A stretch of 64,000 nt of DNA from a virus, in UHGV virus genome UHGV-1372779; one strand, written 5' to 3'. The translations under genes and the position numbers were made by a program. Below the pieces are notes generated by a model. That model did no database searches and was not told the DNA's origin. It saw only the letters and a list, made by a program, of their open reading frames with translations. Positions 436 to 54,398 of this stretch are shown one piece after another (position 1 is the stretch's first letter; each line of letters opens with the position of its first letter).

Positions 436-3400
436 TTATGAAGTTTTAAGAGCTTCTAATTGTTCTAATACCCATTCTTGAGTAGCTAATTTTTTTATTG
501 CTGACGCACCTAAACTTGATCCCCAGTAAGCACCATCAGATTTAATAAGAATGCAAGAATTATCACTTGATCTTTGGATAAAAGGTCCTCCACTAGTTTC
601 AGACCATCCAACTAAGAATCTATTGTAACCTTGTACTCTGAAGATTTGGATTATATCAGTTCCATCAGGGTTATGATTATTAATTACAAAAGGAGTTGAA
701 CCATTTCCACTGATAGTTAATGGGCCAATTTGACCTCCTCTTTCTGTAATTATTTCATATTTTGCCCCAGTTGTTATTTGATGATATAATTTTTGATCAG
801 CAGCAGTTCTTAAAGTCACATGTGTTGCCGCACTATTTCCTACTACTACTCCACCATCGTTGGAGAACCAGTACCATATTCCTCCTTTAGTACAGTTTCC
901 AATACCTCCACCAGCTCCTTCACTTCCAGCATAGAAATCTAAACTTTCTCCTGTAGATAATGCTCCTCCTTTTGATGTGAGTACATTATATTCGGTAACT
1001 GTCACGTCTTCGCCTGCTGTATATGCTTTAGTTTCTCCTACACCTAAGGTTAAAGCTCCAGCATGTATTTTTAGATAAGTTGGAGTTCCTGTTGTTGCGT
1101 ATGGGACATTATATCCAGCTTTCCCCATATTAGGATTGATAAATCTATACAGTACTAATGCTCCAGAAGAATATTCTGAACCCATTCCTCCTCCCATAGT
1201 TCCTGCGTAATATAGACCATATCCTAACTGACCATTAGTAATATTATTAGAGTATCCTACTAACATAGCAGTATCTGATTGGATTCTTCCTGATGAAAAT
1301 ATTCCGCCACTAGGTACTAAAGTTGTATTTGAATAATTAGGTGATACTAATAATGAACCAACTTTTAATTTTTTAGCTGTTCCGGTGTTTAATAAGCCTA
1401 TTTCATCAGCATTTCCTTCTAAGTGCATTCCAGTGCCACCAAAGTAATAATTATTAGCATAAATGTTAGCTGTATACACTTTTTGGAATGCCCACTCACT
1501 TGTACCTAATGATGACATACCTCCTGATGATAGATCAACCTTTGAATTAGGAATAAATCCAGCTGTTGGAGATCTTAGCCATGTTAATTCAACACTATTC
1601 TCAATAGACCATAATCCAGGGTAAGCACCTTCACCTATAACATATCCTGCTGGCTTTTCATCTGCAGTTATTACTCTCTTCCAGTTGGATGAATCACCGT
1701 ACCCTAGGTTGTTGGGAGTTCGGAAGTACATGTAACGAGTACTACCAGCGACATTATGATTAACGTCAAAGGCAAGTTGAGGCATTAATGAGAGTGAACT
1801 TCCTGATCCACTACCCCATATTTGGAGAACTGTACCATATTGCATATTAGTCGGACCGTTTATCCAGTAAGAAGGTCCTGTGTAATTATATGCAAGTTTA
1901 CCCTTATCTGGTCCTACTAAATCTATGTTTAAATCATAGGATGTTTTGTCTTCATGAACGAACCCGTAAGTCCACTTAGTGTTAGGTATGACAGATTCCC
2001 AGTTGAATTCATCAAGTATTTTATAATTAGTAGAGTTTTTAGTATGATATAAATCACTGTCTCCACTTCTGATATATGTTACTCCAATAGCTCTACCTAG
2101 ATGTTGTGAATCAGCATTATTATACAAAATAAGAAAAGTATCAGTTCCTGAATCTACCAACTCCCATGATGATGGCACATATAATTTATCTGGATAGAAT
2201 TTATATTGAGCAGAATAATATGCTACATCTCCTAACCCTATGTAAGCATACTTAGCATTAGTATCATTCCCGTATCCTGCGAACCTAATCATAGAATTTT
2301 GATTACTATTAGCCTTTAAACTTAAACCACGATCCCATCCCTCACCTTCTGAAACTGATAAATTAACTGTAACATCATTATCTGAACCTATTATAAACGA
2401 CCCAACGTTAAACTGTCCAGCAGTGAAGGAGTTATTACCTGTAAAGACATTATCTCCAGACTTTGTTACTGGATCTGAGAGGTTGCTAGCATCCCATATC
2501 TTATAATCAGTTAATCCCTTTCTATGAATCAAATCCACGGCTCCACTCCTTATCTTGGTGGTTCCTGATGAACGACCAAAAGTAGCAAGACTTTCACCTT
2601 CCAAATTAATAATAGTGTTATTTAAATCTTTCAAACACCATATTGATGGAACATTCCAACTTATTATATCAAACTTGTATTGTGCAGTACGAGAAGGAAC
2701 TCTACCAAAACGGAGATAAAAGTAATCAACATCACCTTCACTACCCCAACACCCGATCGAAACTGGGATTTTTCCAAGATTATTGTTGGTCCACGTAATA
2801 CCACTTTCAAAATTACTAGTTTCTGGTATGTGTATTACCATTGATCCTTCACTCAATACCTCTAACGGACCCACTGAAAAATTTCCTGCGACGAAACTGT
2901 TAGTCCCGGTGAAAGCGTTATTCCCTGATTTAGTAACAGGATCAATAAGATTATTTCCATCCCAAATCTTATATTCTGAACCAGATGTATAATGTACTAA
3001 ATCAGAATTAGAATATAAAACAGTCTTACCACTTGCTACTCCAACTCCTAATACATTATTACTGTCTAATCCTAGAACAGTTCTGTTATTCCCTTCTGAA
3101 TCTTTAATTATATACCCAGAATTATTAGGAGTTATAAATGCAGATCCTTCTATTTGAGCATCAGATGATAGAATATTCTCTTCTGATCCAGATACCTTAG
3201 TGCCATTAGCAAAATATAAATCACCTGTTAATTTATTCTCTGAACCAGCTGATAAGGGCAGATAATCAGTTAATACTACTTTCTTATAAGTACCATCATC
3301 CGATAGAAATCTATTACCTGTTCCAGATTTAGGCAAGGCAAAAAAATTCTCTTGAACAAAAATAGAACTTCCCGCAGTAATTTGAACACCATAATTTGCA

Positions 3401-6400
3401 ATATTTAAATCTAAAATTGCAGATCTGGAACCAGGAGTAGTACTAGTTATATAACTAGCAAATAATATTACTGAATCTCCAATAGAGGCAACAGCATTTA
3501 CTAATCTAAGTTCTGGCTCACTTCCAAATTTAAGATAAATATCTCTTCCAGATTTATGAGCCTGATAAATTTCTGTTATTTCTTCAGAAGTATATACTTT
3601 TTCTGTATCATTTATATCAATAACTATAGGCGATATAGAAGGAACTTGAATTTCTTTATATGTACCATCATTAGATAAATACTTATTTCCATTCCCAGTA
3701 CCTATAAGATTAGTATACTCACTACTAACTTGAATAGAACTACCTTCAGATAATTCATATTTATAGGAGATTAATATAGTATCTAATCCTGTATCTCCTG
3801 ATTTTTTCTCATGTAATATTTTAGGAACATAAAAACTTAAATAAGCCATTCCTTCTCCCTGACCTCTTTGTCCTACAACTTCTGTTGCTCTTATTATATT
3901 TTCTCCATCCAATATAAAGATAGGAACTCCTTTTGAATAAGCTTCTAATATACTATGTATTTCTTCTCTAGTGTATACTTTATTATCCTCTGAATCTATA
4001 ATTATTGGGGATATAGAAGATTCTATTTCCTTATAAGTTCCATCATTGGATAAAAATTTAGTTCCATTACCTAAAGAATCTAATACAAAATCCCTATCTC
4101 CATTAAACATTAAAGTAGGATCTTTTAATGTTACAGTATTATTAGCTTTGTCTAGTAAATAAGTGCCTACACTAATCATTGCATAATTTATACTGTTTCC
4201 TGCAATTATATTAAGAGAAATTATTGTATCACTTATAGGAATTACTGTACAAGGATAAATAGTTCCATTTACATTTAAATAAATCGCATACTTAGATTCT
4301 GCCTTTTCTTTAATCTCATCAAAATAATTTAATAATTCTGAATTATCATTGAATTGAGGTATAATATAAACTTTATCTAATAAGGACTCTTTAATACTAA
4401 ATTCTCTATAAGGAACCTTATTCTCATCTTCTTTTTTATCTCCTATATCAAATTGTTCTTTATTAGGCAGTGGAATTTCAGTAACATATTCTTTTAACCA
4501 TGCAGGATTATATAATCCTCCATAAGGCATTACACTTGAATTTGAAGGATAGGGATAAATTGTCGGATAGTTTTCTACTATTATTTCATTATTTTCAACT
4601 TTATGAGAACTGAAAGTTAAATAGAAATACTTATCGACTCTATAAGAGGATAAAGAAGGGTTTGCAAAATTTGACAAAGATCCATCAGGGATTCTACAGT
4701 TAAACTCTAAATAATTCCCATTCATTGACATTTGAACATTTAGAGGCAAAATTTGTGAATATCTTATATTTAAATTCTCTTTGTCCGCATCTGGCATATA
4801 GCCTCCTATCGCTGGGTTCTTTAAAAAGCAAGTTCTTATAAATATCGGAGTTCCTTCTTTAACTGCTTGGATAAATTTATTCCAAAAATCTAAGGTATAA
4901 AATTTAGGGTAAAGAACAAAACTCGGATATTTATCATAATCCACACCTGCGAAATCCCCATATCTAGACATATTTGAATACATTTGACTTAAAGCTCCAT
5001 AAATAGTATAGATGCCTCCAGTTCCTGTAACATTGGGATTCTCTTGCTCAGCAAATGTCATGTCCCAAACAAAGCTTCCTCCTTTAACTTCTAAATATTC
5101 ACCATTATCAGATAAATATTTATTACCTTCTCCACTAGTAATAATCTTATCAACTTTAGATTTATCAGAATCAGAATAATCATTACTAGATAATCCCTTA
5201 CCTTCTTCTTTGTCAACCTTCCGATTTAATAACTCCTTAATATCATTAATCTCTTCTCTAGAAATATTATCTCCATACTTAATACCTTGGAACATAATAT
5301 ATCTATTATCAGTAATGAAGTATAAAGTACCTTGATCTATCTCATTTAAAGATGAATATTCTTGAGAAGTTACATATTTTAACTTAATTTCTTGATCTTC
5401 TCCATCCCATTTAAATTGGGCTACTAACCCATCTTCAGTTTTAACTAATCGAACTCCACTATCACTTTTAGCTAAAACTAAATTAGCTTGAAGTCCTATA
5501 CTTGTTTGGATTAATTCAACAGTAGGAAGAGGATTAGAGTTATCTAATGATATACTAGAAGGTCTTTTTATAATAATAACATGAAATGTACTTTCAATAG
5601 TAATCTCAGTTGTAGTAGTTCCGTCTGTAATGACTAAGAAAATATCCCTATTAGTGAAATTTAAATACTCTTGTCTTATAACTGAATATGTAATAACATT
5701 AATAGGCTCAGCAGCTCTAAGACTGAATGGAGAAACATCCGATCTATTTATAGAATTTAAAACAATGTGTCTATTATTTATAATAGCATTAGCTATTTTA
5801 TTATAAATTTCTTCAGTTACATATTCTACTTGTAGATCCTCTATGTTTATAATCTCAATATCAGAGAATATAATTCCTTCTCCAGTTATTTCTACAAATG
5901 TTCCATTATCCATAAGAGCCTTGTTTCCGGCCCCAGTTAGTTCTGGATAACTGTCTAACTTATTCTTTCTTGCTTCAGTTAAATCATATGTAGATAATCC
6001 TTTTCCTTGAACCTTATCAACTTTGTTAATAATAGTTCCTACTAATGTTTTTTCTTCACTTGTGTAATCATTACTGGATAATCCTTTTCCAGGCTCTTTA
6101 TCTACCTTATTATCCACTGACTCTTTAGTTGCAAGTTCAACTTTCTCAGTTTTGATTAAATTATTGAGCTTGGAGATAATTATATTTTTCTCTGTTAAAT
6201 TATTATCCTTAACTGTTAATATAATCTCATTATCAGTGTCTGATATTAATATGACTGATTTAATTAATCCTGTATTATCAGTAGTATAAATATCTGCATT
6301 ATTCTCTATAGCTAGAACTAATCTATTGTAATTCTCATCTGATATTCTTCCTCCGCTTGGTATATCATTTATTTCTGATAAAATTAAAGTTTCTGAGGAT

Positions 6401-7128
6401 GGAGCTAAAGATTCAGTTAAACTAGGAGATCCTATTAATTCCTTAGTATTAGAATTATATGTAAATTTAACTGTTATTAAATTTTCTCCAGTTATAAATT
6501 TTAGCTCATGTGCTATTTCATTATCTGAAACAATAGTAGATAATATAGATTGATGAGGAATAAGATTAGTAGTTGAAGAATTGTCTTGAATAGATAACTC
6601 AACACTGTTACTATTAGAAGGGTCTTTTAGAGCCTCTCCAACTAATTTTAAATCCTCCTCATCTATAAATTCTAGAGGTTTAGTTCTTATTCTTATAACT
6701 CTAAAACCACTTATATTATATTCTCTTTTACTATTTTCTGAAGTTACATTAAGAATATTACCCTCAGAATCTAAATCGCAAGTAATAATATAAGTACTAG
6801 ATACAATCTTACCATCTTTTATTATAGATCCTTCAAAAATCAAGTTTACTTTATCATCTGAGAACTCTATATCAGAAAGGAAATGATAAATTCCGTCATA
6901 GTAAACATAAACTAAATAATTTAGCTCATTACTTATCTTATCATTTATTACTTGTATTAGCTTCTCAATGTTGTTTATTGTTATTAAATTATCTGGATCA
7001 ATAGAAACTCCTCCTTGTCTAAGAAGATCTTCTATCAATGAGAAATTATAATTTAACTTAACAACAACATCTCTAAGTAAGTCACCTTGAAAATTAAATG
7101 GATACCTACCTATTCTAAATCTCTCCAT
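436..7128 (-). CDS. Giant tail fibre / receptor-binding protein (2230 aa)
   Basis: Six-frame ORF. Repeated VDKxxGKGLSxNDY(T/S) motifs typical of the phage tail-fibre repeat. Gly/Ser/Thr/Asn-rich beta-rich composition. C-terminal modules shared with the 1740-aa fibre (e.g. LGTSEWAF..YYFG..VGSLLVSPNYS). Confidence 0.7.
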   Translation of the reverse strand: MERFRIGRYPFNFQGDLLRDVVVKLNYNFSLIEDLLRQGGVSIDPDNLITINNIEKLIQVINDKISNELNYLVYVYYDGIYHFLSDIEFSDDKVNLIFEGSIIKDGKIVSSTYIITCDLDSEGNILNVTSENSKREYNISGFRVIRIRTKPLEFIDEEDLKLVGEALKDPSNSNSVELSIQDNSSTTNLIPHQSILSTIVSDNEIAHELKFITGENLITVKFTYNSNTKELIGSPSLTESLAPSSETLILSEINDIPSGGRISDENYNRLVLAIENNADIYTTDNTGLIKSVILISDTDNEIILTVKDNNLTEKNIIISKLNNLIKTEKVELATKESVDNKVDKEPGKGLSSNDYTSEEKTLVGTIINKVDKVQGKGLSTYDLTEARKNKLDSYPELTGAGNKALMDNGTFVEITGEGIIFSDIEIINIEDLQVEYVTEEIYNKIANAIINNRHIVLNSINRSDVSPFSLRAAEPINVITYSVIRQEYLNFTNRDIFLVITDGTTTTEITIESTFHVIIIKRPSSISLDNSNPLPTVELIQTSIGLQANLVLAKSDSGVRLVKTEDGLVAQFKWDGEDQEIKLKYVTSQEYSSLNEIDQGTLYFITDNRYIMFQGIKYGDNISREEINDIKELLNRKVDKEEGKGLSSNDYSDSDKSKVDKIITSGEGNKYLSDNGEYLEVKGGSFVWDMTFAEQENPNVTGTGGIYTIYGALSQMYSNMSRYGDFAGVDYDKYPSFVLYPKFYTLDFWNKFIQAVKEGTPIFIRTCFLKNPAIGGYMPDADKENLNIRYSQILPLNVQMSMNGNYLEFNCRIPDGSLSNFANPSLSSYRVDKYFYLTFSSHKVENNEIIVENYPTIYPYPSNSSVMPYGGLYNPAWLKEYVTEIPLPNKEQFDIGDKKEDENKVPYREFSIKESLLDKVYIIPQFNDNSELLNYFDEIKEKAESKYAIYLNVNGTIYPCTVIPISDTIISLNIIAGNSINYAMISVGTYLLDKANNTVTLKDPTLMFNGDRDFVLDSLGNGTKFLSNDGTYKEIESSISPIIIDSEDNKVYTREEIHSILEAYSKGVPIFILDGENIIRATEVVGQRGQGEGMAYLSFYVPKILHEKKSGDTGLDTILISYKYELSEGSSIQVSSEYTNLIGTGNGNKYLSNDGTYKEIQVPSISPIVIDINDTEKVYTSEEITEIYQAHKSGRDIYLKFGSEPELRLVNAVASIGDSVILFASYITSTTPGSRSAILDLNIANYGVQITAGSSIFVQENFFALPKSGTGNRFLSDDGTYKKVVLTDYLPLSAGSENKLTGDLYFANGTKVSGSEENILSSDAQIEGSAFITPNNSGYIIKDSEGNNRTVLGLDSNNVLGVGVASGKTVLYSNSDLVHYTSGSEYKIWDGNNLIDPVTKSGNNAFTGTNSFVAGNFSVGPLEVLSEGSMVIHIPETSNFESGITWTNNNLGKIPVSIGCWGSEGDVDYFYLRFGRVPSRTAQYKFDIISWNVPSIWCLKDLNNTIINLEGESLATFGRSSGTTKIRSGAVDLIHRKGLTDYKIWDASNLSDPVTKSGDNVFTGNNSFTAGQFNVGSFIIGSDNDVTVNLSVSEGEGWDRGLSLKANSNQNSMIRFAGYGNDTNAKYAYIGLGDVAYYSAQYKFYPDKLYVPSSWELVDSGTDTFLILYNNADSQHLGRAIGVTYIRSGDSDLYHTKNSTNYKILDEFNWESVIPNTKWTYGFVHEDKTSYDLNIDLVGPDKGKLAYNYTGPSYWINGPTNMQYGTVLQIWGSGSGSSLSLMPQLAFDVNHNVAGSTRYMYFRTPNNLGYGDSSNWKRVITADEKPAGYVIGEGAYPGLWSIENSVELTWLRSPTAGFIPNSKVDLSSGGMSSLGTSEWAFQKVYTANIYANNYYFGGTGMHLEGNADEIGLLNTGTAKKLKVGSLLVSPNYSNTTLVPSGGIFSSGRIQSDTAMLVGYSNNITNGQLGYGLYYAGTMGGGMGSEYSSGALVLYRFINPNMGKAGYNVPYATTGTPTYLKIHAGALTLGVGETKAYTAGEDVTVTEYNVLTSKGGALSTGESLDFYAGSEGAGGGIGNCTKGGIWYWFSNDGGVVVGNSAATHVTLRTAADQKLYHQITTGAKYEIITERGGQIGPLTISGNGSTPFVINNHNPDGTDIIQIFRVQGYNRFLVGWSETSGGPFIQRSSDNSCILIKSDGAYWGSSLGASAIKKLATQEWVLEQLEALKTS

Positions 7129-48490: not shown

Positions 48491-48579
48491 GGGTATGCAG
48501 CGACGATGGTGGTGTCGTGCGAGACTGTAAATCTCGTCCCTTAGGGTAAACATTGGTAGTTCGAATCTACCCATGCCCA
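48491..48579 (+). tRNA. tRNA-Tyr (anticodon GUA), class II
   Basis: Acceptor gggtatg/catgccc. Anticodon arm cgaga-cuGUAaa-tctcg. Variable arm tcccttagggtaaacat. T-arm ggtagttcgaatctacc. Confidence 0.75.
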
Positions 48580-48581
48580 CA

Positions 48582-48660
48582 TGCGGGTGGGTGAAATGGA
48601 TATACAAATCATTCCAGCCTCATAAGCTGGAGATACTAGGTTCGATTCCTAGACCCGCTA
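48582..48660 (+). tRNA. tRNA with CAU anticodon (Met or Ile2); U1-U72 terminal mismatch
   Basis: Anticodon arm ccagc-cuCAUaa-gctgg. T-arm ctaggttcgattcctag. Confidence 0.6.
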
Positions 48661-48690
48661 CAAAAGTCACTTACAATACTGCATATTTAA

Positions 48691-48762
48691 GAACGAATAG
48701 CTTAGCGGATAAAGCAATTATCTTGGATATAATAGTTCTGGGTTCGATTCCCAGTTTGTTTA
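48691..48762 (+). tRNA. tRNA-Pro (anticodon UGG), AT-rich
   Basis: Acceptor gaacgaa/tttgttt (G-U pairs). Anticodon arm attat-cuUGGau-ataat. T-arm ctgggttcgattcccag. Preceded by the ACTTACAATA motif at 48669. Confidence 0.6.
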
Positions 48763-48771
48763 GTAAAATTA

Positions 48772-48984
48772 GTGACTATTTTTAAATTAAAATCAAAATC
48801 AAAGATTATGGAAACTTATATTAAAATGTATAAACAAAGATATTATGGTTATTACTGTAATATGTGTAAGGATTTAGGAATTAAACCTGTTCCATACTGT
48901 GACTTTGATAAGAATTTATACAAAGAAACAAAACTTTTATTAAAAGATTCAATATTTTGGGCTAGTTCTGGATTTGACAGGTGA
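48772..48984 (+). CDS. Hypothetical protein (70 aa)
   Basis: Small ORF after the tRNA cluster. Confidence 0.3.
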   Translation: MTIFKLKSKSKIMETYIKMYKQRYYGYYCNMCKDLGIKPVPYCDFDKNLYKETKLLLKDSIFWASSGFDR

Positions 48985-49719
48985 TTAGAACAGTATTAAG
49001 ACATGTAGGAAGGCAGTTTCCTTATAAAGGCAAAACTAATAAATGCTAAAGGTAGAGTAATCTCCTTCTCTAGACCTGCAGCTATTGCAGCGTAAGAGTT
49101 GGGTTGTCAACTGACCTAGAAACAGAATAGTTGTAAATATTAAAAAAGGATTGTATTAATATAAGCAAACCAGAATCCTTGAACCTGTGAATCTCTAGGT
49201 TGTAAATATATTTTTTATATTTCCCTTTTAGAAGGTGACAGACCATTGGGTAATTCCATAGGAGCGCTGTTAGGCTTATGAAGTTTCCTTATTCTTTAAA
49301 AATAAGGTGGTGGAGTAGTAATCCATGATTACCCCAAAGTTTGGTAGTTTGTGTATAGCTGAAAAATGGACAGTTGTGTGATATTGTATAAGCACACAAG
49401 TCAGTAAAACTATCTATAATTGATCTATGTGATTTATAGATCATAAACATGTATATCTTAATACTAAGTAAATTGTCTGGACCGGAGTTCGACTCTCCGC
49501 TAGTCCACGGGAACAAGTTAGGTGTGCTCAGGGTAAAGCTCTGAGGGTTAGATATGGATGGAATCAGAAGTACTAGTCTCCTTCTGGATTGAACTAAGAA
49601 AAGAGTATATAAGCATAGTGGACGCACTAAATTTGTGAAATTACTCCACCAAAAGAGATTTTGGTCTAGTAGCATCTAACTTTTTTAAAAATATTAACAT
49701 TTTAAATAACAAAAACAGT
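48985..49719. ncRNA. 735-bp ORF-free structured region: degenerate group I intron-like element or other structured RNA
   Basis: No plausible ORF (only a low-complexity minus-strand ORF). Contains group-I-like blocks: ATTGCAGCG..GGGTTGTCAAC (P-element-like, 49093..49120), GATATGGATGGAATCAGAAGTACTAGTC (J6/7-R-like, 49551..49578) and AAGCATAGTGGAC (S-like, about 49618). Long-range pairing GGTGGAG-TAG-TAAT (49308..) with ATTACTCCACC (49640..). tRNA-T-arm-like hairpin tggac-cggagttcgactctccg-ctag-tcca at 49479..49508. Confidence 0.35.
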
Positions 49720-50166
49720 ATGGAAAGAATTAACTTCACAGAAGAGAACTTAGCTCAGCTAAAAGATCTTGCAGTAGAGTTCTTATTTAATAGAACTACA
49801 TTTAATGGTCCTATGAGTACTCAATATGATGTAACTCAAGTGATACATGACACTACTATGAGTTCTTTAAAGTCTATGTTCAATAGCATTAAATCTGCAA
49901 TAGATAAGAAATCTAATGTAAGTAGATGGACTACTTCAGCTGCAGAACAAAAAGAATTGAAGATTCTTGAGGATAAGAAAGAGTTCTTAGACCTACTAAT
50001 GGGATATAAACTCTATCAAGCTCAGGAAGCTGAAGTTGCCAGAGAAGCAGAAGCTCTTAGAGCTGAGATTAAATCTCTTGAGGAAGATACAAAAACTCCT
50101 GAAGAGAAGCTTAAAGAGAAGAAAGAAGCTTTATCTAAGTTAGAAAATTTCTTCAAAATGGTTTAG
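49720..50166 (+). CDS. Hypothetical coiled-coil protein (148 aa)
   Basis: ORF with its own ATG immediately after an in-frame stop. Confidence 0.45.
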   Translation: MERINFTEENLAQLKDLAVEFLFNRTTFNGPMSTQYDVTQVIHDTTMSSLKSMFNSIKSAIDKKSNVSRWTTSAAEQKELKILEDKKEFLDLLMGYKLYQAQEAEVAREAEALRAEIKSLEEDTKTPEEKLKEKKEALSKLENFFKMV

Positions 50167-50312
50167 GTTTATAAAACAGTAGCAAGGTTATAGTTTATAT
50201 TTCTTGCTACTGCATGTTACTTACAATCTAACAAACTTGTCTGATCTGCAAGTAAAAAAGGATCTCCATAGCTATCATCTTTATTAATAATTAAGTTTAA
50301 TCAAGTAACATT

Positions 50313-51836
50313 ATGAAAGTAGAATTAAATAACAAAGAAACAAATCCTTTTTCTGGGTTAAGAAACTGTTTGAAGATTTTTAACAACGGTGGTCAAGGCA
50401 TTACATTAAGTCAAGATGATTTAAATAAAGCCTGGGAAGAGGTAAAAGATAGTAAAGAGAAGAAAGAGATGTTTTTCTCTCTATTATTCTCATTAGGAGA
50501 TATTACTGCCAGACAACACAACATCTTTAGAGGTCAAAAAGTTGATTCTGGAGGTAATTCTCAAAGGGAAATTTTTTTCAACTGTATGGAGTGGATGAAA
50601 AAGAATATCCCAGATCAATTCTTTAAATTCATGAAATCTCATTTATTTAATGAGTACACTTGTTTTGATAATCTATTTAGGAATAGAGTCCAAACTCAGG
50701 GTAAGAAGATCATATCTATTAAATCTGTGTTGAACACATCTGATAATAGATATTTCAATGAGTTATTAGATTACACTGAATCTATTATCAAAGGTAAGAA
50801 TCCTTATGATAAGATGCTTGTAGCTAAATTCTTAACTCTTCCTAGATTATCACCAAGAAAAGAGCATAAACAAATGCTTCCTCAAACTAAAGAATTGATG
50901 AAAGCAAAGGCTAAATTCTTAGAAGAATTATCTAAGAGAATGAATTGGCCTTATAAAATTGAAGGAAATATACTAAACTTCAAAGGATATAGAGAGTGGA
51001 GGAAGGAATACAACTCTACATTAGAATCTGTTCTTTTCAGTACTGGAAAGATTAAAGATTTTGATGAAATTCAGTTTTTGGAATGGTTGGATAGAATCCC
51101 TGCACAAGCTAGATTCAGAGTGAGAAACAGAATCATGTTTGAGAAAGAGGGAACATTTAAATATCCTAAACTGAAAGAGTGGTATGAAAAGTGGGAGAAA
51201 TACAAAGAAGAGAAACAGGCAGAGCAAAGAGTTCTTGAAGAGAAAGTTCGCCAAGGACAGGCTAGTGTAGAGGATAAAGTTAAATTGGAAAAGGTTAAAA
51301 AAGAAGCCAAGGTAACAGTTGGATCTACTAACTTCCAAGAACTTTATAAAGAGATCCTTAGTGGAAGGATTGATAAACTTAAATTGGAGTCTTTTGTGAA
51401 TAACAAAGTAAGTCTTCAATATAATAGTTTAGTGATTATTGATGACTCCGGATCTATGGGTGGTGCGCCTTTTAACTTTGCTAAATTTATTGCATCTGTT
51501 TGTCTTGTTAAAAATCCAGATGATGATGGAAGAAACCTTTTAGGATTCTTCAATTATGATTCTAGACTATACGGAAGTATGGATAGAGCTGGAAGTAAGA
51601 CTCCTAATAGCTTAATGAGATCAAGTGTGAAGAATATTGTTAAGAAGCCTTTTGTAGATCCTCATAAGAGTTTCTATGAAAACTATCAAAACATTTCTTC
51701 ATTCTGCCAAGGTGTATTCCAAGGTGGAGGTACTAGAATAAATAGTATCCCAAAAGGATTTGCTGAACAAGCTAATAATAATCCTGTATTATTAGATGAA
51801 CTTATGCAATACCCAGTTTGGACAATTGTTAGTGAT
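50313..51836 (+). CDS. Ro60/Rsr-like protein, exon 1: helical N-terminal (TROVE-like) region plus first part of vWA domain
   Basis: About 370 aa helical N-terminal region, then a vWA domain starting VIIDDSGSMGG (MIDAS DxSGS at residues 376..381) with GGGTR downstream. Ends ...YPVWTIVSD followed by a stop at the intron boundary. Confidence 0.45.
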
Positions 51837-53045
51837 TAAATTCTATTCATAGTCACTCCCAATAGTAATATTGGTGTAAAAATGCTTTAAATTGCGGGAA
51901 ACTCCTTAGAGACTAATTAACTAAGTATAAACAGTGATGTTTATATGGCCTTATTAATGATTAAGGGTATAGTAAAATCAATTAGTATTGGAAAATCCGC
52001 AGCCAAATCTCTTTTATAAAATAATTTAATAAATTCTACAATCATTTTGATTTCTGAATTTAATTGTTTATATTTGTATTATGTTAAACTAATACAAATA
52101 AACATGAGAAAATTAGAACAAAATGAAATTAATAAAATTCTTCAGCTTTACACTGAAGAAAAATATTCAATATCTAAAATAAGAGCACTTTTCAAACTTC
52201 AATTTGATGATGTAAAACATATTCTAGAAGAAAACGGAATAAAGACAAAATCTCAAAGAGAAAGTAGAAAGACTTATGATTATAATGAAAACTATTTTTC
52301 TGAAATAAACACAAAAGATAAAGCCTATTGGTTAGGATTTATTTACGCTGATGGATTTATTACTAAAAAGGCTAAAGGAAGTCCAGTTTTTGGAATGACT
52401 TTAGGAGAAATAGAGCCATTAGAAAAGTTAAATAAATATATGGATTCTAACAAACCTATAGGAATATATAAGAAGAAAAATAGTTATTCTGAAAAATCTA
52501 TTGAATATAAATTAGCTTTCTGTTCTCCTAAATTAGTTTCAGATTTAGAGAAATGGGGAGTTGTAGAAAACAAAACATTCAAATTAAAATTTCCTAACTT
52601 TCTATCTCCAAACCTCATTCCTCATTTTATTAGAGGGTATTTTGATGGAGATGGGAGTGTATATCTTCACATTCAAAAAACTAAGGATAAGGAATATATA
52701 TTCTTGGGTTCCCAGTTTTGCGGAACCAAAAGTTTTCTTTCAGACTTATCTAAATATATAAACTTAGAAACTTGCTTATATAAAGATAGTAGAAAACAAA
52801 CTGATTGTTGGAGGATACAATTAAATTCAAACATAAGAAGCTTAACCTTATATCATTATTTATATAATAATTGTGAAGATTTATTCTTATCAAGAAAAAG
52901 GGAAAAATTTGAAAATTTTATAAAAGAGAGAGGTTCAACGACTACAATAAGCAATCCTATCTATGGTGATCCAGAATATTTAACTCTGTGTTATCTAGAG
53001 GATTAAGGTATAGTCTAATCTTATATGAAAGTATAAGTAGTTATG
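51837..53045 (+). mobile_element. Group I intron with LAGLIDADG homing endonuclease ORF
   Basis: AAATTGCGGGAAA (51893..51905) is identical to the Tetrahymena-type P element. Q-like AATCCGCAGCCAA at about 51993. GACTA/TAGTC P7 candidates at 51915 and 53012. Near-identical GATTAAGG(G)TATAGT blocks at 51962 and 53002 flank the endonuclease ORF. The 5' exon ends in U and the intron ends in G (53045). Confidence 0.6.
52047..53006 (+). CDS. LAGLIDADG homing endonuclease (319 aa)
   Basis: Two LAGLIDADG motifs: YWLGFIYADGFI and IRGYFDGDGSV. Confidence 0.8.
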   Translation: MISEFNCLYLYYVKLIQINMRKLEQNEINKILQLYTEEKYSISKIRALFKLQFDDVKHILEENGIKTKSQRESRKTYDYNENYFSEINTKDKAYWLGFIYADGFITKKAKGSPVFGMTLGEIEPLEKLNKYMDSNKPIGIYKKKNSYSEKSIEYKLAFCSPKLVSDLEKWGVVENKTFKLKFPNFLSPNLIPHFIRGYFDGDGSVYLHIQKTKDKEYIFLGSQFCGTKSFLSDLSKYINLETCLYKDSRKQTDCWRIQLNSNIRSLTLYHYLYNNCEDLFLSRKREKFENFIKERGSTTTISNPIYGDPEYLTLCYLED

Positions 53046-53354
53046 GGTGAATGGAATAATATGTATTCTCCAGAAGCTTCGATGAATGAATTCTTCAGAG
53101 ATTGTGAGAATCTTTTAGGATTTAGACCATTTATCATTGCGATAGATATTCAAAATCCTAATTGGGCATATCAGACATTTAAAGCTGATAGATTCACTGG
53201 TATAGATAATATGATCTATATTCCAAGTAACCCAGCTCAAATTGAGCAAATTCTTACAAATTTCAAGGACATTGAAATCTTTGATGTCTATACTCCGTTA
53301 CTCTCTTTATACAGAAGTAATAGATATGATCTAGTAAGGACTAATGTAATTTAG
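53046..53354 (+). CDS. Ro60/Rsr-like protein, exon 2 (C-terminal part of vWA domain)
   Basis: Joining ...TIVSD to GEWNNMYS... recreates the vWA h-h-h-(T/S)DG-x-x-N motif (IVSDGEWN). Continues with FIIAIDIQNP... Confidence 0.5.
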   Translation, partial: GEWNNMYSPEASMNEFFRDCENLLGFRPFIIAIDIQNPNWAYQTFKADRFTGIDNMIYIPSNPAQIEQILTNFKDIEIFDVYTPLLSLYRSNRYDLVRTNVI

Positions 53355-53429
53355 TCCTTACTATTAAAATGACTCAATTATTATAAAGAACAATACAGAT
53401 ACTTACAATATTACAAGAATCAATTTATG

Positions 53430-53454
53430 CAGGTTCAACTCCTGTCTTTTGCAT
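53430..53454 (+). pseudogene. tRNA 3' fragment (T-arm plus 3' acceptor strand) without upstream D/anticodon arms
   Basis: gcaggttcaactcctgt plus cttttgc plus a. The complementary 5' strand gcagaag, with a D-arm and a cuGAGaa anticodon arm, lies just downstream (53466..53510). This could be a permuted or rearranged gene. Confidence 0.35.
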
Positions 53455-53589
53455 TAGCAGAAGTGGCGAAATTGGTATACGCACTGGTCTGAGAAACTAG
53501 GAATATAATATTCAATAGTATCTATTTATGACTTTTCTTTTCCTTGCATGATATACTGATACTTACAAAATCAAAACCATCTGTGGGTC

Positions 53590-53648
53590 GAGGGTTCGAA
53601 TCCTTCAAATCGCGCGTTTTGCGAATTTAGCTCAGTAGGTTTAGAGCA
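53590..53648 (+). pseudogene. tRNA 3' fragment followed by a tRNA 5' fragment (acceptor plus D-arm only)
   Basis: gagggttcgaatccttc-aaatcgc-g, then gcgaatt-ta-gctcagtaggtttagagca. The two acceptor strands are complementary except for one A-A. No anticodon arm follows. Confidence 0.35.
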
Positions 53649-53731
53649 ATAGACAAAAAAGTATCATTCAGATAAGGAAATAATATTTTAGAATAAAAAT
53701 TATAAAGTCACTTACAATATTATCATAATTC

Positions 53732-53805
53732 GTAGAAATAACTCAATAGGATAGAGTACAAAACTTATAATTTTGGTGTTCAGGGTTCGATCCCCTGTTT
53801 TTACA
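53732..53805 (+). tRNA. tRNA-Ile (anticodon UAU), AT-rich
   Basis: Acceptor gtagaaa/tttttac. D-arm actc-aataggata-gagt. Anticodon arm caaaa-cuUAUaa-ttttg. T-arm cagggttcgatcccctg. Confidence 0.6.
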
Positions 53806-53840
53806 GTGTAATTATTATAGTGACTAATTTTATATTTTAA

Positions 53841-53952
53841 GGGGATGGTTTATAACTATTAGTAAATTTATATTTACTTACAAAATCATAAACTGTACGG
53901 AAAAATTTACACCACAAATGTAAACAAGCAGGTTCGAATCCTGCCATCCCCG
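53841..53952 (+). ncRNA. 112-nt tRNA-like RNA (Y-RNA/YrlA-like candidate) with perfect acceptor-type stem ggggatg/catcccc
   Basis: Terminal 7-bp stem plus discriminator g. Canonical T-arm gcaggttcgaatcctgc. Anticodon-arm-like hairpin tttaca-ccacaaa-tgtaaa. No D-arm. Contains the internal ACTTACAAAATC motif. Confidence 0.45.
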
Positions 53953-53980
53953 CAAAAGCTACTTACAATAAGATTTAAAT

Positions 53981-54053
53981 ATAACAATAGCTCAGTTGGT
54001 TGAGCAAATTTTTGGTAAAAATTAGGTCGTAGGTTCAAGTCCTACTTGTTAAA
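53981..54053 (+). tRNA. tRNA-Thr (anticodon GGU)
   Basis: Acceptor ataacaa/ttgttaa. D-arm gctc-agttggtt-gagc. Anticodon arm aattt-uuGGUaa-aaatt. T-arm gtaggttcaagtcctac. Confidence 0.65.
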
Positions 54054-54082
54054 TAAATTTAAAAGTAGCTATTTTATAACTT

Positions 54083-54199
54083 GGGGAGGTTGAAATGTTG
54101 GAGTAAGAGTATCAGTTCATTGTGATACTTACAAAATCAAATTAATTTCGAATAAATTTGGGTTTTATCTTAACGCAGGTTCGATTCCTGTCCTCCCCA
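54083..54199 (+). ncRNA. 117-nt tRNA-like RNA (Y-RNA/YrlA-like candidate) with perfect acceptor-type stem ggggagg/cctcccc
   Basis: Terminal 7-bp stem plus discriminator a. T-arm gcaggttcgattcctgt. Internal ACTTACAAAATC motif. No canonical D or anticodon arms. Confidence 0.45.
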
Positions 54200-54241
54200 C
54201 TACGTTTCGTAAGAGCAAATAGTCAGACACTTACAATACTA

Positions 54242-54314
54242 TAAATTGTAGCTCATTGGGTAGAGCATTTGATTTTTAATCAAAGGGTAGTGGGTTCAAG
54301 TCCCATCTTAGTGT
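54242..54314 (+). pseudogene. tRNA-Lys(UUU)-like body with non-complementary acceptor strands (pseudo-tRNA or non-canonical)
   Basis: D-arm tagctcattgggtagagca. Anticodon arm tttga-uuUUUaa-tcaaa. T-arm gtgggttcaagtcccat is identical to that of tRNA-Lys at 59069. 5' taaattg and 3' cttagtg do not pair. Outer stem cagacact/agtgtctg flanks the unit. Confidence 0.35.
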
Positions 54315-54326
54315 CTGTTTTTAAAT

Positions 54327-54398
54327 TGAGACATCGTATAATGGTTAATACATCAGATTTTGATTCTGAGAATCTAGGTTCGAATCCTAGTGCCTCAA
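54327..54398 (+). tRNA. tRNA-Gln (anticodon UUG)
   Basis: Acceptor tgagaca/tgcctca (one mismatch). D-arm gtat-aatggtta-atac. Anticodon arm tcaga-uuUUGau-tctga. T-arm ctaggttcgaatcctag. Confidence 0.55.

Follow-up and report, generated by a model that had tools for sequence, protein, structure and literature searches.

The region between positions 48985 and 49719 of a 64,000-nucleotide stretch of the virus genome UHGV-1372779 (the whole stretch is hereafter the window) had been described in an earlier note, made from the letters alone, as a highly structured non-coding RNA locus. A structured non-coding RNA locus is indeed present, and we read it with good confidence as a composite of several RNA elements that belongs to an uncultivated tailed phage and is transcribed rightward along with the adjacent transfer RNA (tRNA) genes. 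Judged by its sequence, 48959..49507 is a phage-encoded gene for transfer-messenger RNA (tmRNA), the ribosome-rescue RNA; nested within it is a pseudoknotted motif that we named X5, and behind it lies a structured spacer, X3. The term "novel ncRNA" (non-coding RNA), also used earlier, fits the uncatalogued pseudoknot motif at 49141..49280, which had not been foreseen, but not the main component, which is a known tmRNA. The main component of the locus is a gene of a known kind, though unusual in form, and the nested X5 is the part that deserves follow-up. Related phage contigs are given L numbers; L001 is IMG/VR 3300045988_127716, which is near-identical to the window, and L058 represents a sister phage lineage.

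A tmRNA gene in the window

A scan of the whole window at the Rfam gathering thresholds returned 26 tRNA matches and one tmRNA match, and nothing else. The tmRNA match (RF00023) covers 48959..49510 on the plus strand and the full model (positions 1-374), with a score of 49.0 bits (gathering threshold 47) and an E value of 2.4e-16; cmscan with the tmRNA model was among the checks proposed earlier, and tmRNA is what it matched. The elements of the gene are listed below.

48959..49507, plus strand: tmRNA gene including the insertion, 549 nucleotides (nt)
48959..48965, plus strand: 5' strand of the acceptor stem, GGGCUAG, pairing with CUAGUCC at 49500..49506
49045..49095, plus strand: tag reading frame, with resume codon GCU at 49045 and stop UAA at 49093-95 (ARAGORN on the insertion-deleted sequence)
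49133..49283, plus strand: insertion of 151 nt in the tmRNA pseudoknot region, replacing 15 nt (AAGGTGGTAAATGGG) of L058 (alignment A7)
49141..49280, plus strand: X5 motif, within the tmRNA
49483..49499, plus strand: T arm CGGAG-UUCGACU-CUCCG (read from the sequence; aligned by Rfam with positions 346-365 of the tmRNA model)

The 5' boundary of 48985 proposed earlier is wrong, as the first nucleotide of the RNA is 48959, within the terminal part of an open reading frame (ORF) of 70 amino acids (aa). This 5' end lies at an exact indel boundary relative to L001, where a 173-nt gap (48785..48957) stops just before G48959, T48958 being present in both sequences. The acceptor stem of 7 base pairs includes G3·U70, the alanine identity pair for alanyl-tRNA synthetase (AlaRS), and the discriminator is A49507; the CCA end is incompletely encoded, with CGG coming after A49507. 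The G3·U70 pair is kept in the tmRNAs of L058, L027 and L016 despite their differing stems (GGGGCUA/UAGCUCC, GGGGCAU/AUGCUCC). The T stem (49483-87 with 49495-99) closes the loop UUCGACU and is followed by CUAGUCC-A; the T-arm-like minihelix recognized earlier is real and is the T arm of this tmRNA. After the acceptor 5' strand, CUGGAUUUGACAGG at 48968-81 matches the GGAUUYGAC-type criterion for a D-analogue.

A long P2 helix, made up of GACAG/UUGUC, AGUAUUAAGA/UCUUAAUACU and ACAUGU/ACAUGU, connects the tRNA-like domain with the rest of the molecule. By inspection, P2 differs from that of L058 only by A-U to G·U and G-C to G·U changes, and when P2 and the hairpin stems are compared with both L058 and L001 the differences are solely wobble or compensatory. 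The resume codon GCU (Ala) follows an A-rich stretch, the tag frame has no AUG, and the encoded tag, AKGRVISFSRPAAIAA followed by the stop, ends in AIAA; the homologous tag of L058 is AKGKVVSFSRNRALAAA, likewise followed by a stop. The first pseudoknot (PK1) is drawable at ~49008-49038 from AAGG/CCUU and AGUUU/AAACU, a stretch that the Rfam alignment misplaces.

When the insertion was deleted in silico, default ARAGORN called the window tmRNA from 48959 with the same boundaries, and it also called the same ends in unedited L001, whose block is 42 nt shorter and whose tmRNA measures 511 nt. The tmRNA of L058 (425 nt) is called by ARAGORN as well, and the window is colinear with it but for one block (alignment A7). 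L016 (73 bits), L027 (69.5 bits) and L008 have tmRNAs in the equivalent syntenic place, ahead of a 148-aa ORF and a DUF2828-like gene. A strict regular expression for tmRNA ends matched L001, L002 and L027 only.

The insertion and the gene order in related phages

The insertion is situated between the post-stop hairpin and the next hairpin, and the remaining pseudoknot region looks like simple hairpins. Its flanks read U/G...G/U, the slashes marking the junctions, and its removal, X5 included, restores a tmRNA of standard length. L001 and L047, assemblies independent of the window and of each other, show this arrangement too. In L058 the order is tmRNA, a 105-nt spacer, X5 and X3, and in L004 and L005 (68% identity in the DUF2828-like protein), which have neither a tRNA-like domain nor a tag, the X5 homologue is directly followed by a homologue of window 49511..49660. 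The element orders are A-B-C-D in L058, C-D in L004 and L005, and A-C-B-D in the window, L001 and L047. Since X5 lies ~105 nt downstream of an uninterrupted tmRNA in L058, it is the window lineage that carries the rearrangement (A-C-B-D versus A-B-C-D). Searches with nhmmer using the whole region gave partial matches only, exposing this mosaic structure, and neither the region nor X5 had a relative among 50,697 GenBank phages in blastn and megablast searches.

Structure and covariation of X5

X5 is a predicted pseudoknotted four-helix RNA module, discrete and well supported, and the window copy is composed of the following elements.

H1, plus strand: 49146-52 with 49174-80
H2, plus strand: 49160-66 with 49274-80, plus 49171-73 with 49267-69; pseudoknot with H1 (H-type)
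H3, plus strand: 49183-85 with 49234-36, with a variable insert at 49186-49233
H4, plus strand: 49243-62, with a GUAAUU loop
Junctions, plus strand: GACAGA at 49237-42 and AGCG at 49263-66

Read from 5' to 3', the first half consists of an A-rich tail, the H1 5' strand, the loop AUAGUA(G), the H2 5' strand and the H1 3' strand, and the second half of GA, H3, (G/A)ACAGA, H4 (CC-AN-NNN-GUAAUU-NNN-NA-GG), AGYG and the H2 3' strand. H3 is a hairpin of very variable length; the 42-nt polymorphism between the window and L001 falls exactly within it, and the whole motif measures 105-225 nt across copies.

Covariation across related phages had been suggested earlier as a check, and for X5 it could be assessed on 55 copies aligned by covariance model R1, which finds a single copy in the window (49140..49299, 128.7 bits). 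In this alignment 97.3% of the cells are standard pairs, compared with 72.3% in shuffles and 38-49% in slid controls, and changes on both sides were observed in 20 of the 25 pairs. The covariation score of 0.644 (0.156 in shuffles) was reached by none of 500 shuffles, and in a mutual-information scan over all column pairs the top 13 were proposed X5 pairs. H1 and H4 are outside the structure of the covariance model, so that their counts depend less on its fit, although the columns are still aligned by it. H4 is absent from two X5 copies (L130 and L024/L144), and is therefore a module. A core of 30 nt is near-invariant across the contigs found by scans that both fixed part of it, and H4 varies only compensatorily. 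Two G-C pairs of H1 are invariant while the neighbouring pairs covary freely; together with the GUAA-type loop of H4, they may indicate tetraloop-helix docking.

Two further features of the alignments were observed. In alignment A6, columns 2 and 17 (5' A-rich tail and loop L1) covary as G/G in 38 copies and U/U in 12, a non-Watson-Crick coupling that may be a tertiary contact or a mere lineage effect. Moreover, the H3 inserts of four unrelated contigs (L067, L069, L087 and L096) share CUCGUAAAUGYNNCGANNGCYUUAUGCAAAGNNGAG, which suggests an optional accessory domain.

Distribution and genomic context of X5

The 21-nt core GACAGACCATTGGGTAATTCC is present exactly in 54 IMG/VR contigs of 7-355 kb, and a degenerate scan anchored on the flanking helices recovered further X5 variants with altered cores. 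Among 185,579 species genomes, the exact core was found in only 5 contigs of metagenome-assembled genomes, at least one of which, 127,832 bp long, is identical with a viral entry of IMG/VR; on these counts a host origin of X5 is unlikely. All 171 tRNA or tmRNA genes located within 3 kb of the 55 copies lie on the strand of the motif, and a tRNA is found within 1 kb in 33 of them. In L050, L076, L122 and L137 the tRNA starts 3-5 nt past the H2 3' strand, and in L076 this is a suppressor tRNA. We conclude that X5 is a widespread phage RNA motif, uncatalogued in Rfam 15, and that numerous unrelated phages carry it within or next to tRNA islands.

Nearly all of the 55 X5 loci are intergenic. Behind some copies lie terminator-like hairpins, whereas behind others an ORF comes immediately. 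The downstream genes are unrelated to one another in family, which makes a riboswitch or another cis-regulatory element unlikely. No protein family recurs around X5 in more than 5 of the 55 loci, and a partnership with a nearby protein is accordingly unlikely as well. Searching three X5 copies against Rfam 15 at E ≤ 10 gave nothing real, the hits (wcaG, drum, pan, small nucleolar RNAs and microRNAs) being at chance level. When compared by eye, X5 did not fit the topologies of CR-I/CR-V of ribonuclease P (RNase P), hepatitis delta virus (HDV)-like and hammerhead ribozymes, or group I P3-P7-P8. The core sequence was not found in the searchable literature, which does not cover the unnamed candidates of an IMG/VR screen (PMC10690425).

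The X3 spacer

X3 extends on the plus strand over 49508..49700 (3' limit approximate), in the interval that separates the tmRNA 3' end from the ATG of the 148-aa ORF. A pattern scan found it only in the window group and in L004, L005 and L058, in which three it follows X5; the other matches were chance matches in coding sequences. The following helices can be compared between lineages.

49527-45, plus strand: hairpin a, GCUCAGG/CCUGAGG versus AUUCAGG/CCUGAAU
49603-07 with 49642-46, plus strand: second helix, GAGUA with UACUC versus GUAUA/UAUAC, two compensatory changes relative to L005 and L058
~49649-64, plus strand: CCAAAA-GAGA-UUUUGG

RNAalifold on six X3 sequences gave 13 pairs changed on both sides, and the single-sequence minimum free energy is -48.7 kcal/mol (z = -2.7). 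In X3, neither a sigma-70-like promoter nor a terminator stood out against shuffles. With low confidence, X3 may be regarded as a structured spacer, a 5' leader, or a 3' domain that the X5 RNA has in this lineage only. The possibility that X3 contains another, degenerate tRNA-like 3' end (GGACGC...CUCCACCA) was considered and rejected, as L005 and L058 read ...CCACCU and the strand pairs locally.

A long-range helix between the ends of the region had also been proposed earlier. Both of its strands exist, GGTGGAG-TAG-TAAT at 49309-22 and ATTACTCCACC at 49640-50, but the helix itself is at chance level: a helix of 7 bp or more with a 4-bp extension arises in 67% of 300 mononucleotide shuffles (mean 1.4 per shuffle; 4 observed). 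Its 3' strand pairs locally in the covariation-supported helix 49603-07/49642-46, and its 5' strand lies within the tmRNA body.

Neighbouring genes and locus layout

The genes surrounding the RNA locus are the following.

48491..48762: tRNA-Tyr, tRNA-Met and tRNA-Pro, upstream of the region
48772..48984, plus strand: 70-aa ORF, its final 26 nt overlapping the tmRNA 5' end
49720..50166, plus strand: 148-aa ORF, its synteny after the tmRNA and X elements kept in relatives
50313..51839: 508-aa ORF

The 70-aa ORF, located between tRNA-Pro and the tmRNA, is cysteine-rich; most of it is encoded by the 173-nt segment 48785..48957, which is found in the window only and not in L001, L047 or L058, and searches of Pfam and PHROG gave nothing convincing. 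No family match was obtained in Pfam or PHROG for the 148-aa ORF, whose homologues stand directly behind the tmRNA in L008 (33-nt gap) and behind X3 in L005 and L058.

The region had been called ORF-free, which is correct for the plus strand, where 48985..49719 contains no ORF of at least 60 aa, but not for the minus strand, where a 128-aa ORF spans 49289..49675. The frame of the latter is broken in near-identical L001, and it is therefore not coding. The description as relatively GC-rich holds modestly (0.34-0.37 versus 0.26-0.32 in the flanks). The region is not the longest non-coding stretch of the window, since 53355..54389, in a tRNA area, is free of ORFs over 1035 nt.

A motif resembling a phage promoter element, (C)ACTTACAAT, is located at 48668..48677 and 50217..50227, shortly before tRNA-Pro and the DUF2828-like gene, and relatives have it in corresponding places (L005 ~2045, L008 ~3310, and L058). 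No copy is present in 48959..49719, which suggests that the tmRNA, X3 and the 148-aa ORF would be co-transcribed with tRNA-Pro.

Several peculiarities of the tRNA genes were also noticed. The orthologues of tRNA-Pro(UGG) (48691..48762) in L001 (2592..2662) and L047 read CUUCAA(A) in the anticodon loop instead of CUUGGAU; the loop is one base shorter, and ARAGORN outputs "tRNA-???" with a 2-nt anticodon. This may reflect either remodelling of the loop (possibly to UCA, which would be opal-reading, or to a frameshift type) or decay. Several window tRNAs are unusually long for their type (for example Asn 87 nt, Thr 84 nt, Tyr 90 nt). In related phages, many Rfam tRNA matches measure 108-142 nt (for example L013 5658..5765, L027 6183..6291 and 6355..6496, and L016 5577..5712), which suggests intron-containing tRNA genes. 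A tRNA-model match at window 54248..54307 (model positions 7-64) is not called by ARAGORN.

A probable group I intron near the locus and a group I intron in a relative

The DUF2828/vWA-like ("Ro60-like") gene of the window is split: exon 1 ends with ...WTIVSD at 51836 and exon 2 starts with GEWNNMYSPE at 53046, whereas the homologues are mostly uninterrupted and ~610 aa long. The insert of 1209 nt (51837..53045) begins after U and ends in G, contains a P-like element (AAATTGCGGGAA at 51888) and an S-like element (AAGGTATAGTC at 53005), and carries a LAGLIDADG ORF at 52047..53006 (Pfam PF14528), an arrangement also observed in L047. It looks like a group I intron, although the Rfam scan at gathering thresholds does not report it. 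The tmRNA of L008 (1611..2813) is interrupted in its T loop, between GGACGAGGGTT and CGACTCCCTCTAGCTCCA, by a group I intron of 722 nt (2073..2794), which scores 99.9 bits with Rfam Intron_gpI and holds an antisense 141-aa ORF with a LAGLIDADG-type motif (GFFDADGS).

Proposed mechanism

On the basis of established tmRNA biology, the host AlaRS would charge the tRNA-like domain through G3·U70, and the charged tmRNA would enter stalled ribosomes together with the protein SmpB. Translation would then resume at GCU 49045 and append AKGRVISFSRPAAIAA, a C-terminal degradation-type tag of the (I/L)AA class, as in standard trans-translation. X5 is most likely a stable small RNA domain that would ride on tRNA or tmRNA precursor transcripts and be trimmed by tRNA-processing nucleases; its context suggests that it would be transcribed with the tRNAs, and that RNase P would define its 3' end where a tRNA abuts. 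In the window, X5 could either be tolerated as a replacement pseudoknot domain or be cut out, leaving a two-piece tmRNA held by the acceptor stem and P2. As candidate roles of X5 we consider, in declining order of belief, a stable RNA acting as a decoy or binding a host factor, an element for processing or stability of tRNA-island transcripts, and a self-cleaving ribozyme.

Alternative explanations

Several points weigh against the composite reading. The native window sequence is not called as a tmRNA by default ARAGORN, and lowered thresholds produce overlapping junk calls only; the gene is missed because of its length of 549 nt, a matter of tool heuristics and not a biological criterion. The Rfam score is only 2 bits over the threshold, the tag is missing from ARAGORN's list of known tags, and PK1, being identical in all close relatives, is without covariation support. 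The inserted 151-nt domain could impair tmRNA function. The support for X3 comes from three distinct lineages only. The downstream genes and neighbouring proteins of X5 are inconsistent, so that its context yields no functional clue, and X5 may already be among the ~10,000 unnamed candidates of IMG/VR screens (PMC10690425).

The alternative that survives best, which we nevertheless regard as improbable, is that X5 is an intervening sequence excised by host RNases or by self-cleavage, giving a two-piece tmRNA and a free X5. X5 is autonomous elsewhere, and four of its copies stop 3-5 nt short of the 5' end of a tRNA, where RNase P would release them; two-piece tmRNAs held by the acceptor stem and P2 exist in nature, and the U/G...G/U flanks agree with excision. 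No processing signal was identified, however, no Rfam ribozyme matched, and by eye the H1-H2-H1'-H3-H4-H2' topology misfits the HDV-like, hammerhead and twister consensus.

We give less credence still to the possibility that the tmRNA is a pseudogene inactivated by X5, with X5, and perhaps X3, as the sole functional product. The failure of ARAGORN on the native sequence and the score barely over the Rfam threshold are in its favour, as is the fact that L004 and L005 keep X5 and X3 without tmRNA parts, which would make the tmRNA dispensable in this clade. On the other hand, the tRNA-like domain, G3·U70, P2, the resume region and the tag frame are intact, the three independent assemblies are near-identical with differences in loops or compensatory, and ARAGORN calls the 511-nt version of L001 with the same ends. 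The region of pseudoknots PK2-PK4 in tmRNAs is tolerant of replacement, and therefore the insertion there need not inactivate the RNA.

A bolder proposal, to which we assign a similarly small chance, is that X5 represents an undescribed compact class of phage RNA with an activity of its own, whose maturation would yield a free X5 and a two-piece tmRNA. The candidate activity would be self-processing or high-affinity binding of a conserved host factor, deployed inside tRNA islands. The near-invariant core and the possible docking of the H4 loop onto H1 would agree with this proposal. If X5 is indeed matured out, a two-piece tmRNA would here arise for the first time from a non-permuted gene, and also for the first time in a virus.

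The interpretation favoured in the earlier note, a degenerate group I intron-like element (or ribozyme remnant) or a Y-RNA-like partner of the adjacent Ro60-like gene, is wrong, and we consider each of its two branches very improbable. Introns of the group I class are active in these genomes (the T loop of the L008 tmRNA and, probably, the DUF2828 gene 2 kb downstream), and the H1/H2/H3 topology of X5 superficially mimics P3/P7/P8. A permissive Rfam scan (E ≤ 10) of 48700..50400 nevertheless found no match to Intron_gpI, Y_RNA, YrlA, RNase P, GOLLD or ROOL, and added chance-level matches only, while the Intron_gpI score in L008 serves as a positive control. No P, Q, R or S element is present, the P, J6/7-R and S resemblances noted earlier have no support, a P4-P6 domain is missing, and the cited group I-like block 49551-78, which is part of X3, lacks conservation outside the window lineage, in L005 and L058. 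In addition, the T loop of the window tmRNA is uninterrupted, and X5 is mostly intergenic elsewhere, which leaves no exons to ligate. As for a Y RNA of the YrlA type, a tRNA-like element does lie near a gene of the TROVE/vWA-like (DUF2828) type, and tRNA mimicry is a trait of the bacterial YrlA RNAs, but the tmRNA explains the T arm, the supposed terminal stem does not exceed chance and is contradicted by covariation, and the X5 scans recovered only 5 of the 45 DUF2828 contigs, many X5 contigs not having come up in the DUF2828 search.

Comparison with known systems

The composite reading, a tmRNA with a nested X5, can be set against several described RNAs. The window gene shares with the tmRNA family RF00023 the alanine-type tRNA-like domain assembled from both ends, the long P2, the GCU resume codon, the (I/L)AA tag and the tRNA-gene neighbourhood; it differs by its length of 549 nt and by the 151-nt foreign structured module in the pseudoknot region. 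Such genes are rare in gut phages, with 7 of 788 genomes positive by ARAGORN (PMC12291355). The L008 tmRNA, of the same phage clade, is likewise a tmRNA gene with a large foreign RNA insertion; in contrast to its T-loop intron, the window insertion is in the pseudoknot region, is not of group I and gives no sign of splicing. A tmRNA gene with a group I intron in the T loop also exists in Clostridium botulinum (ssrA). If X5 were excised, the product would resemble the two-piece tmRNAs of alpha-proteobacteria and cyanobacteria, two RNAs held by the acceptor stem and P2, but the window gene order is not permuted, and the partial match to RF04321 (36.3 bits) is below the threshold of 47.

With regard to X5 itself, stable RNAs of the T4 tRNA cluster, "species 1 and 2" (rnaC and rnaD), are matured from tRNA precursors and have no known function. 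X5 may be likened to them as a small RNA embedded in a phage tRNA cluster, although it has no blastn match in GenBank phages and no sequence kinship is expected. Theta ribozymes sit at tRNA 3' ends. In gut phages these minimal HDV-like ribozymes have their cleavage site within ~5 nt of a tRNA, including suppressor tRNAs (PMC10879173). X5 is likewise a small structured RNA within a few nt of phage tRNA genes; it differs in being upstream of the tRNAs, in being larger and in its helix order. GOLLD and ROOL are structured phage or prophage RNAs of unknown function, often near tRNA islands, and tRNAs are sometimes located in the GOLLD linker (PMC12286853). X5 similarly abuts tRNAs and interleaves with a tmRNA, but it measures 105-225 nt instead of 600-800 nt, has another sequence and fold, and has no Rfam match.

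Implications

An annotation of phage genomes based on ARAGORN would miss the window tmRNA, and as pipelines rely on this program, both phage tmRNAs and insertions in them may be more frequent than estimated. In one phage clade, tmRNA genes are hot spots for insertions at the RNA level, with the T-loop intron in a relative and the pseudoknot-region module here, and the locus is a natural experiment on the amount of foreign structure that a tmRNA can accommodate. X5, with its near-invariant core, its occurrence only in phage-like contigs and its tie to tRNA islands, is a candidate for a new phage RNA function, like GOLLD and ROOL, and its size of 105-140 nt puts it within reach of direct biochemical and structural work.

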